DNA from: Verrucomicrobiota bacterium
GTDB lineage: Bacteria > Verrucomicrobiota > Verrucomicrobiia > Limisphaerales > CANJXF01
Length of the DNA stretch: 64,000 nucleotides
Assembly: GCA_038214755.1 (NCBI GenBank)
Contig: JBBQRQ010000016.1
Coordinates: 1 to 64,000, forward strand
Reading direction: 5' to 3'
Positions 60,001 to 63,000 of the stretch are shown one piece after another. The first letter of the stretch is position 1. The number at the start of each line of letters is the position of its first letter. A program made the position numbers.

Positions 60001-63000
60001 TGTATGCAATGCGGTCGCAAGTGGCGAGGACAACATATTAACTCTTATTAACGAGTTATTCACATCGAAAATTCCCTTTTAAAATAAGGGTTTCGAGTGG
60101 TTTGACTTGAGTTCGAGAACTCGAAAGAGGGACGAACAGAACCCATTTTCCGAATCGCAGTAGAAAAACTTCGTTCGACTTTGCATCCTGCAGCCCGTTT
60201 TTGTTTCAGCATATTTATTTTCGGCCGACCACAAGTTGTTTCCTTTCGGCGTTGAAATTAAACGGTTTCTTTTTTTGTCCTCGCTGTGGATGCGGACGGT
60301 TTTCATTGGGGCTTACCAAAAAACGTCCCCGCCCTATTCTCCGGTTTCCGCTGGCTTTCTCCCTCGGCGCGCTTTCATTTTGCAGATATTAGCAATCGAG
60401 AAAACGATGTGTAAACCTGAAAACCAAATTAAAAACTTTTTTTTATTTTTTTTCCGCGAAGCGAATTATAATTGGGGCAAAACAGCCACAACTAATTCAT
60501 CAAACCAAACCGGTTAATACTTTTTAAAGTTCTTGACGGGAGCGCGGCGCGATGATTACTTGCCCCTTGATTACGCCACCGGCTTTCGGGCAAAAAATAA
60601 AATTGTTCTTTATGCCCATTTAATTTCGGCCGCGGCTTGGTACAGGCCGCAGCCGGATCTCTACGTGATCCACATGTGTACCAATTCGAAAATTCCCCGG
60701 GCTTCTTAGTCATCCCCTGACTACTTAGCCCGGTTTTTTTTAGCCCTTGAATTAAATCCAAACGGGGAGGAAAAGTTCGCTCCCAAAAAGTTTTTCCAAT
60801 ATAGGTGGGCGTCCAAATGAAACGACCGTTTATCTTTACCAAAATTTATTCCGGCGCATTTCTTTTTTTCTCTCTCGCTCTTGGCATCGCGGCAGAAAAT
60901 CCGTTCGCGGAAATCATTCGCAAGACAGCACCACTGACTCCCGACCAGGAGCAGAAAACGTTTCATCTCCCCCCGGGCTTCGCCATTGAACTTGTGGCGA
61001 GCGAGCCACAAATCAGCAAGCCGATGAATCTGGATTTCGACGCGAAAGGCCGCCTTTGGATGACGCAGTCGCGCGAATATCCCTTTCCGGTATTGCCCAT
61101 CGAAAAAAAAGGGCGCGACAAAATTCAAGTGCTGGAAAATTTTGATCTCACGGGCCGCGCGCAAAAAATATCTACGTTCGCCGACGGGTTGAATATTCCC
61201 ATCGGAATTTATCCCTACAAAAATGGTGCGCTCGCCTTCAGCATCCCGACTATTTATTTTTTCCAAGATACCAACGGCGACGGAATCGCGGACAAACAGG
61301 AACTTTTTCTCGGCCGTTTTGGTTTCGAAAAAGATACGCACGGATTGACCGGTCATTTTCGACGCGGTTTTGACGGCTGGCTTTACGCCGATCACGGGTT
61401 CAACAATGATTCCACTCTCACCGCCAAAGATGGCAGCACGATCAAGTTAAATTCCGGCAACACCTATCGCATCAAAATCGACGGCTCTCACCTTGAGCAA
61501 TTTACCTGGGGACAGGTCAATCCGTTCGGTCTGATGTTCGATCCGCTCGGTGATCTTTGGTCCTCGGACTGCCACAGTTCGCCGCTTTATCTTCTCACCC
61601 GCGGCGCCCATCTTCCCAGTTTCGGCAAAGTCCACGATGGCCTCGGCTACGCTCCGAACATTTGCGAACACAGCCACGGTTCCACCGCCATTGCCGGAAT
61701 GGTTTTTTACGCCGCCACGAATTTTCCGGCGCAATTTCGTAACAATACTTTTATTGGAAACGTGATGACCTGCCGCATCAATCGCGATTCATTCATCGAA
61801 CACGGCTCAACGCGCATCGCAAAAGAAGAACCGGATTTTTTAACGTGCGATGACCCTTGGTTTCGCCCGGTTGATTTGCAACTCGGCCCGGATGGCGCCC
61901 TTTACGTGGCCGATTTTTACAACCGGATTATTGGCCATTACGAAGTTCCGCTGACCCATCCCGGTCGCGACCGTGAGCGCGGACGAATCTGGCGCATCGT
62001 TTACAAAGGCGAACGCGCTGCCGACATTCTGTCGGCAGAAAACACCAGACAGTTTCGGGGAGATAAAAATATTCCCACGCGTCCATCAATGAAGACTTCT
62101 ACCGACAGAATGTCGGCAGCACTTTCTGAATTGGGCAACGCCAACATCACGCGCCGAATGTTGGCCATGAACGAAATCACTGACCGCATCGGTCAACCTG
62201 CAATCGCGCCCATCAAAAAAATGATGCGCAATAAAAAATCAACCGCGTTCCAAAAAATTCACGGCCTCTGGATTTTGCAGCGTCTGGATGCGCTCGACGC
62301 AAAAATTTTGTCGTCTGCCGCCAACGATTTTGATCGCGGTGTTCGGGTTCATGCCCTGCGCGTTTTGTCGGAAATTCCAGAATGGACTCAGCCTCAAAAG
62401 CAACTCGCCCGCGCCGGCTTACGCGACAGCGATGCCTATGTTCAACGCGCCGCCGCAGATGCGTTCGGCCAGCATCCCGCCCTCGAAAACGTCCCGCTGC
62501 TTTTGGAATTGCGCGAGCGAATTCCCGTTCAAGACACCGAACTTTTATACGTCGCACGCATGGCGTTGCGGAACCAACTGATTGATTCGAATCATTTTTC
62601 CGCAGTAATGAAGTCGGATTTGACGGAAGCCGATTCGCGTGCCATCGCGGACGTTGCGGTCGGGGTGAAGAATTCGGTAGCCGGACAATTTCTTCTCGCG
62701 CACATTCAAAAATTTTCCGAAGAGAGAACGAGACTCACCGAATATTTGCGCCACATCGTTCGTTACGCTGAATCCGGTTCCGAACAAATTGCCGCCTTCA
62801 CCGAAAAAACTTTTGCTGACGACATTGATTTTCAGGTGGCGCTTTTTAAATCGGTTCAAGAGGGCGCGGCGCAACGAGGGTCGCCACTCGCCCAACCCGT
62901 CCGCGACTGGGGCGAGCGTCTCGCGGAAAAACTTTTGCTCTCCATCGACGCAAAAACTTTGGAGTGGCGCAACTCCGCGATCAAAGGCGGCGAACCGACC

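Follow-up and report, generated by a model that had tools for sequence, protein, structure and literature searches.

The sequence between dnaA and a large, divergently oriented DUF7133/HEAT gene in the source genome (G000) carries, on the forward strand, a member of a real RNA family that occurs throughout the order Limisphaerales and for which no earlier description was found. Judged by comparison of its copies, the family very probably represents a functional RNA, and it appears to behave as a regulated small RNA that belongs to no curated family. Comparison supports the survey's finding of an order-wide, pseudoknotted non-coding RNA that stands alone and has a promoter and a terminator to itself. 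Our preferred reading, to which we assign a probability of roughly 0.4, is that of a trans-acting, regulated and Hfq-independent RNA, in which a boxA-like tract would load NusB-S10 during synthesis and C-rich strands would bind a partner. The window, i.e. the whole stretch of 64,000 nucleotides that was analysed, contains the following relevant features:

58385-59746, minus strand: dnaA (Pfam Bac_DnaA, Bac_DnaA_C, DnaA_N), divergent neighbour, given for context
60492-60496, plus strand: CTAAT half-site of an operator-like repeat
60514-60520, plus strand: (C/T)T(A/T)ATAC box just 5' of the -35 hexamer, a likely activator site
60533-60538, plus strand: -35 hexamer TTGACG
60553-60561, plus strand: TG extension and non-standard -10 (TTACTT), at 17-nt spacing
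60569-60741, plus strand: predicted RNA of ~173 nt, its 5' end inferred from promoter spacing
60569-60575, plus strand: 5' GAUUACG, the 5' strand of helix P0, pairing with 60664-60670 (some lineages only)
60588-60617, plus strand: stem P1, GGGCA (60588-60592) with UGCCC (60613-60617), its large loop containing the boxA-like tract
60603-60612, plus strand: boxA-like tract UUGUUCUUUA in the P1 loop, family core GNUCUUUR
60625-60657, plus strand: stem P2, 60625-60637 with 60645-60657
60639-60644, plus strand: pseudoknot 5' strand GGUACA, within the P2 loop
60658-60676, plus strand: C-rich linker, in the family UUCUCCGUAAUCCUAC
60677-60682, plus strand: pseudoknot 3' strand UGUACC, complementary to GGUACA
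60683-60696, plus strand: conserved single strand AAUUCGAAAAUUCC ahead of the terminator, its 3' part fixed by the pattern for loci found by pattern scan
60697-60741, plus strand: intrinsic terminator with a 7-pair stem, an internal loop, a 6-pair stem, a UCCCC loop (60713-60717) and eight U
60817-63999, plus strand: downstream gene with DUF7133 and HEAT repeats, continuing past the window end, given for context

All parts named in the survey's finding (the -35 hexamer, two stems, the GGUACA/UGUACC complement, UUGUUCUUUA and the terminal hairpin) were located in the sequence, and a covariance model built from 101 rows (R2) matched the locus at 60567-60742 with 164.7 bits. The length had been put at ~190 nt; the predicted transcript is shorter, ~173 nt here and near 180 nt as the family median. 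A plain consensus scan of the window detected neither the promoter nor the terminator of the RNA.

Model R2 matched 108 of the 121 genomes of Limisphaerales, 99 of them once and nine of them two to five times, which agrees with the earlier description of an RNA that is conserved across the order and nearly always single-copy. Outside the order, none of 149 other genomes of the phylum was matched. A model built from 29 rows (R1) similarly recognised 11 of 14 further genomes of the order and none of 106 other genomes of the class. Since just the 18-22 best candidates per genome were scored in the large covariance searches, remote forms may have escaped them. By BLAST, matches were obtained in 46 of 61 relatives, the source genome included, and the few weakest of these hits are short and probably due to chance. 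The RNA was not found in families f30 (0 of 3 genomes) and f55 (0 of 2), no diverged copy appeared at E up to 5 in five RNA-negative genomes, and six glnB-type loci of RNA-negative genomes held no copy when searched with filters off. A pattern scan of all species genomes gave at least 120 matching stretches. Among the 80 titles listed, 66 were Verrucomicrobia, Limisphaerales or Pedosphaera, one was Akkermansia, four read plain 'bacterium' and nine named other phyla; the latter were taken as mislabelled, since two of the nine (L078 and L088) have a verrucomicrobial ileS context. The terminator pattern had no match in viral contigs, and plasmids likewise gave none. One locus from an unpublished genome (L008, genome G009) is a single row in alignment A1 and enters the tallies of BLAST hits, promoter elements, tract variants, neighbours and open frames; no claim depends solely on it.

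None of 200 shuffled sequences folded as well as the stretch itself (z -4.41), whose computed fold differs from the comparative structure. The 43 named pairs of the latter gave 83.5% paired cells on 29 rows, compared to 25-45% when slid, and 86.3% on 99 distinct model-fitted rows, compared to 26-44%; these counts favour the nested stems, because those stems were part of the aligning model, from which the pseudoknot was absent. RNAalifold applied to a plain MAFFT alignment recovered the terminal hairpin alone (60697-60733). P2 and the terminator stems covary strongly: both sides change in 10 of 12 P2 pairs (87.8% paired, on rows fitted to P2), and two pairs of the terminator, which is also the RNAalifold consensus, show joint changes of 16/16 and 6/6. 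The conserved C-rich loop reported for the terminal hairpin was recovered as UCCCC here and as YCCYC variants in 139 of 142 copies, though loci from the pattern scan could show no others; for these loci the terminator columns are invariant partly by construction, but the invariance is also visible in the BLAST-selected set.

The pseudoknot-type pairing proposed by the survey was borne out by a tree-aware test. On a tree of 95 rows (the 101 minus duplicates and fragments), made with the pseudoknot columns excluded and from an alignment whose model lacked the pseudoknot, three core pairs showed 6/6, 3/4 and 3/4 joint changes where at most 0.2 were expected. They rank third to fifth among 11,022 column pairs tested, counting pairs with at least three joint changes, and one further core pair showed none. 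Mirrored variants are GUUCA/UGAAC, GCACA/UGUGC and GUUACA/UGUAAC. The two stems described previously are both present here, but P1 is weak (82.6% of cells paired on model-fitted rows) and is missing from divergent copies, where the U-rich tract persists; its first pair shows nine joint changes against 2.9 expected, and the remaining pairs are weaker. Helix P0 is perfect in this copy and mirrored in some lineages. It was rejected as a family-wide feature: paired cells amount to 77% on 29 rows and 61% on 99 rows, the tree shows no excess of joint changes, and the cognate pairing energy over 122 copies is -7.96 against -7.15 for non-cognate strands, so that the helix is clear in some lineages only. 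In the C-rich linker, several C positions are 90-99% conserved in the 101 rows.

These patterns make it very unlikely that the conserved unit is a DNA-level element or a small-peptide gene instead of a functional RNA. Such a role would suit the proximity to dnaA at 22 of 106 loci and the palindromic GTAC, but would not account for the compensatory and G-U changes in the pseudoknot and three stems or for the oriented promoter and U-tract. Furthermore, among 122 copies the length of the longest open frame varies widely, between under 5 and about 49 codons, and the operator motif TGTTC-N4-GAACA matched 0 of 142 copies.

A -35 element could be called in 129 of 143 distinct copies (none in 14), with TTGAC in 122 of the 129. 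The -10 reads T-T-W-W-N-T and is preceded by TG, at a spacing of 17 nt. Counted over the 129 promoters, T occupies -15 in 111, G occupies -14 in 117, and T occupies -12 in 111, -11 in 107 (A in 7) and -7 in 121; by eye, the tRNA promoters of the source genome have the usual A at -11. The sigma70-type promoter claimed before holds with respect to the TTGAC -35, but the -10 is non-standard, with T at -11. The (C/T)T(A/T)ATAC box accompanies 85 of the 122 TTGAC promoters and remains with the RNA where glnB is elsewhere. In the homologues, YTWAT sites gather at two distances ahead of the -35, 42-43 and 51-53 nt, and ATWAG lies inside the promoter spacer in 45 of 122. The composite promoter is unique within the source genome, and no shared regulon for its box was found there or in 2.4 Mb of a relative (G059). 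Taken from its sequence, the promoter is non-standard and probably regulated. Nitrogen control through glnB was considered and rejected: in the source genome glnB and glnA lie on another contig, with sigma54-like sites and only one CTAAT, and the box stays with the RNA.

Another motif, GAA(C/T)-17-GTC, was found upstream of 19 of 144 copies against 1.8 expected; its GTC is presumably the -10 of an ECF-type promoter. The motif stands at -35 distance in five of the seven GUUCA-type copies that lack TTGAC, and directly before TTGAC in 12 copies of one lineage, which are kin and so not independent. For E. coli sigmaE, GAAC is given as the core of the -35 (PMC3326320, in part). The ECF-type motif also precedes nine genes of the source genome and two orthologues in G059, with no gene common to the two sets. 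Some paralogues and one lineage thus seem to use ECF-type promoters, and expression may be activator- and stress-dependent.

Neighbours were tallied over 106 loci of at least 1 kb, counting only genes with a relative in the source genome. Upstream, the closest recognised gene is divergent from the RNA in 72 of 85 cases, and glnB lies near upstream at 44 of the 106 loci, dnaA at 22 and glnA at 10, as expected from the earlier statement that the neighbours vary and are often glnB or dnaA. Downstream, the closest gene shares the strand of the RNA in 60 of 81 cases and is convergent in 21, with 49 families represented; the DUF7133/HEAT family sits downstream in 8 of the 106, and the commonest family, ileS, has a promoter of its own in 19 of 19 listed loci. 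A cis-acting role, as leader, riboswitch or antiterminator of the gene that follows, would suit the pseudoknot with a terminator behind it and the shared strand at most loci, and at three loci no more than about 15 nt separate the U-tract from a gene start; the rRNA complex is moreover said to interfere with intrinsic termination (PMC13753749, in part). However, the 49 downstream families are unrelated, 21 of 81 genes are convergent and ileS is self-promoted, which speaks against a leader or riboswitch. The top column pairs included no covarying antiterminator, and the functions of the downstream genes are inconsistent for a riboswitch or T-box. Cis action can therefore be regarded as largely refuted, and we consider it highly improbable. 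EAR and put antitermination RNAs are likewise structured, near a promoter and possibly linked to antitermination, but these act in cis on a downstream operon, whereas the neighbours here vary and are often convergent.

The boxA-like tract is held at a fixed place in the RNA. Of 142 copies, 117 have its core GNTCTTTR, 89 extend this to GNTCTTTRA and eight to GNTCTTTRANA, and nine are without the tract; in the window it ends UUUAUG. The second base is T in 92, A in 21, C in 19 and G in 1 of 133, a range that covers the boxA of both E. coli (UGCUCUUUAACA) and B. subtilis (AUGAUCUUUGAAA), and the variant GATCTTTGA is present in 14 copies. In the rRNA operon leaders of five relatives, GCTCTTTGAAAA was found in four and GCTCATTGAAAA in the fifth, and their rRNA spacers contain G(T/C)TCTTTR sites; some spacer sites of the order also depart from the A-N-A tail of the consensus GYTCTTTAANA (PMC5725501, in part). 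The likeness to boxA noted by the survey thus holds for the 8-9 base core, which matches the rRNA boxA of the order itself, but not for the 3' A-N-A tail, which is not kept. When the main RNA copy of G059 was compared with the 6-kb rRNA operon of that genome, the two longest identical stretches were the two boxA sites (11 and 10 nt), and the second copy likewise gave boxA stretches of 11 and 10 nt. The same comparison yielded a tie at 9 nt in G051 and did not recover boxA in the partial rRNA locus of G043. With 389 occurrences of a similar 9-mer over the two strands of the source genome, the fixed placement of the tract is far beyond chance, which speaks for function and not specifically for NusB binding.

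The same 8-9 base core is found in the rRNA boxA of the Nus complex (NusB-S10, NusA, NusG, SuhB, S4) and in the boxA of suhB and of CRISPR leaders. Like this tract, rRNA boxA is single-stranded and near the 5' end of an untranslated transcript; unlike it, the tract lies in a short, self-terminating RNA without an operon behind it, has lost the 3' tail, and its binding is putative. The B. subtilis element AUGAUCUUUGAAA binds NusB (PMC13753749, in part), and the rRNA antitermination complex is described as an RNA chaperone that relies mainly on boxA (PMC8632103, in part). Non-coding RNAs were not considered in the accessible text of a survey of boxA beyond rRNA (PMC5725501). Of the 121 genomes of the order, 120 have nusB, and two rho genes were seen in five of five genomes checked; both are also found in genomes without the RNA and are uninformative as co-occurrence markers. 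Overall, the resemblance tips the balance modestly towards the tract being a NusB-S10 site.

If it is, the RNA could alternatively act as a decoy or sensor: after its release, boxA in the open loop would draw the heterodimer off the rRNA operons under stress, while the pseudoknot and terminator would lend stability or bind further Nus factors. Protein-titrating RNAs typically have regulated promoters and extra copies, and known RNAs of this kind carry many binding sites. This RNA probably has such a promoter and occurs in up to five copies, and its tract outlasts the surrounding stem, is identical to the core of rRNA boxA, lies in an open loop and has been retained by most paralogues; that no mRNA target was found also suits titration. 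It offers, however, a single site per RNA, from which the boxA tail is missing, nine of 142 copies have no tract at all, and the conserved C-rich strands are left unexplained. We consider such a decoy rather unlikely, and the same holds for an extension of it in which the RNA, as a free decoy or by sensing spare Nus factors, might also engage Rho through the C-rich strands and tune rRNA antitermination in trans. A literature search found no RNA that mimics the rRNA loading signal as a NusB-S10 decoy. Among established titrating RNAs, 6S and CsrB/RsmZ share order-wide presence and paralogues with different promoters, and 6S is of similar size, but the canonical 6S RNA sits elsewhere in the source genome. 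A CsrB/RsmZ type was rejected: CsrA has no match, and words resembling GGA occur on the opposite strand and are lost in the loop variants.

The lack of a credible Rfam match reported by the survey was confirmed with Rfam 15: in the window, nothing matched the RNA with E up to 10, and in 15 homologous loci, searched with E up to 5, three weak matches fell outside the RNA and none on it. A missing housekeeping RNA was also excluded, as 6S, SRP, RNase P and tmRNA are all located elsewhere in the source genome. Neither Hfq nor CsrA had a match in this genome, which is 97% complete. No report of such an RNA was found in the literature, where subscription papers and supplementary motif lists could hold one, and the term 'verrucomicrob' is absent from the available text of PMC8632094.

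RsaE/RoxS and LhrC are C-rich base-pairing RNAs that are independent of Hfq, and RydC is an enterobacterial small RNA with a pseudoknot core, much shorter and Hfq-dependent. With RydC, this RNA has in common a pseudoknot as the core of a trans-acting small RNA, here without an Rfam match. With C-rich base-pairing RNAs of the RepG, AbnZ and RsaE type, it shares conserved C-rich single strands and loops. AbnZ and RepG pair through C-rich loops with G-rich sites without Hfq (PMC11724286, in part), and C-rich pairing without Hfq has been proposed for FsrA (PMC7430163, in part). Like these RNAs, the present one has its own, probably regulated promoter and its own terminator, C-rich loops and strands, a host without detectable Hfq and sibling copies; in contrast to them, it has a pseudoknot and a boxA-like tract, matches nothing in sequence or Rfam, lives in a host that seldom uses Shine-Dalgarno sites, and has yielded no target.

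Targets were sought in the source genome, where a simple gene caller gave 3604 genes. Its start regions are A-rich and G-poor, and since Shine-Dalgarno sites are rarely used (GGAG in 64 of 1482 starts), the usual anti-Shine-Dalgarno mode is unlikely. All four common variants of the YCCYC loop could wobble-pair with one G-run. Duplex ranking in this genome alone gave no confirmable outlier. A low-power ranking over two genomes, which used 2.4 of the 4.1 Mb of G059 and the 602 of 731 orthologue pairs with agreeing starts, had highest scores of 17-26, where shuffled segments reached 14-24, and its best hit was a coding fragment. Two glycolysis leads were dropped: the G-run of pgk is not conserved across 30 genomes, and the tpiA match follows codons and recurs in three of four genomes without the RNA. 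Pairing with rRNA or other stable RNAs was likewise rejected, with short chance-level complements only; the terminal loop fits a 16S stretch in its UCCCC variant only, and inspection by eye in four relatives showed no likeness to helix 38 of 23S rRNA.

Two other roles for the single strands were weighed. The RNA might be a scaffold or decoy for a different protein, such as a Rho, KH or cold-shock protein or S1, with the boxA likeness reflecting convergence on a U-rich site. The invariant C residues scattered in repeated (U/C)(U/C)C motifs would fit this, as would the two rho genes and the binding of Rho to YC in C-rich, unstructured RNA (PMC12360218, in part). No partner was found, however, rho pairs also exist in genomes without the RNA, and the match to rRNA boxA would have to be coincidence; we judge this unlikely. 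Alternatively, in an ordinary base-pairing RNA without involvement of Nus factors, the single-stranded U-rich tract could serve as a seed for the A-rich, G-poor start regions. This seems quite unlikely, as each of the four letters occurs at the second base of the tract, so that one conserved target could not pair with every copy, and the tpiA lead is explained by codons and extends to genomes without the RNA.

The preferred reading, with NusB-S10 loading and a partner for the C-rich strands, would combine these elements as follows. A weak, activator-dependent promoter, of sigma70 type in general but of ECF type for some paralogues and in one lineage, would give rise to a self-terminated transcript of ~175 nt. 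The boxA core, within the first 35-45 nt, would recruit NusB-S10 and thereby set up an rRNA-type elongation complex, which could shield the untranslated C-rich RNA from Rho and aid folding of the pseudoknot. In the finished RNA, the P2 pseudoknot would form a stable scaffold that presents three C-rich single strands (the linker, the strand before the terminator and the terminator loop) to a partner, which would most likely be G-rich sites in mRNAs, bound by base-pairing that needs no Hfq. Of these elements, comparison shows the anatomy of the gene, its structure, its independence from neighbours and the identity of the tract with the rRNA boxA core of the order, whereas expression, control of the promoter, binding of NusB-S10, shielding from Rho and base-pairing are inferred. 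Several observations weigh against this reading: no target emerged from the one-genome or two-genome ranking and both glycolysis leads failed; the boxA tail is present in only eight of 142 copies, and the same-genome comparison tied in G051 and failed in G043; an RNA of 175 nt may not need antitermination; the conserved positions of the single strands are dispersed, a pattern that would fit contacts with a protein just as well as pairing; and nusB and rho are also found where the RNA is not.

Neither Rfam nor the literature search yielded a regulatory RNA from this order, which is abundant in soil and freshwater, and the RNA described here is kept in about nine of ten genomes of the order. As the host has no detectable Hfq or CsrA and makes little use of Shine-Dalgarno sites, it would act by a non-textbook route. 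If the tract does bind NusB-S10, boxA, so far described in rRNA, suhB and CRISPR leaders, would have a further place in a free small RNA, and the family would make it possible to test directly whether a small RNA can titrate Nus factors or be chaperoned by them.

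Paralogous copies of the small RNA were found in several genomes of the order, among them a tandem pair in G053 (locus L030), three copies in G152 (L038/L046/L048) and five in G300. A GUUCA/UGAAC version of the pseudoknot strands was frequent among these extra copies, together with a differing promoter. Further paralogues lie at the following loci:

L040/L047, genome G094
L024/L199, genome G059

At three loci (L059, L091 and L155), a gene starts at most about 15 nt from the U-tract of the RNA's terminator, and because of this short distance, terminator read-through may be used there to some extent.

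Two sites upstream of the divergent dnaA resemble the DnaA-box consensus and would be compatible with autoregulation or an origin region as possible roles. The window also holds a canonical 6S RNA gene.

59762-59770, strand not given, TTATTCACC, DnaA-box-like, 5' of dnaA
60056-60064, strand not given, TTATTCACA, DnaA-box-like, 5' of dnaA
37276-37456, - strand, 6S RNA gene, 64.7 bits

Elsewhere, many relatives (L306-L333) have a recurrent AATTC(C/G)C, possibly an operator, immediately 5' of the -35 element that serves pgk, and TTGGCA...GC sites, which we take to be sigma54-promoter-like, occur 5' of glnB and glnA in the source genome (regions of C37:14263 and C37:16186). Across this genome, Shine-Dalgarno signal is scant at gene starts, which are rich in A and poor in G, despite retention of the CCUCC end of 16S rRNA in relatives.

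Profile searches detected two rho genes in each of five tested genomes (the source genome G000, plus G038, G320, G144 and G111). In every case one gene scored above the cut-off of the family, and the other was shorter, with no counterpart to profile positions 1 to 40-50. Those of the source genome are:

C23:15740-16978, strand not given, rho profile match
C65:15471-16565, strand not given, rho profile match

The covariance-model search did not find the RNA in G038, G320 and G355 of family f30, or in G144 and G343 of family f55, and these genomes are helpful for tracing its partner through gene content.
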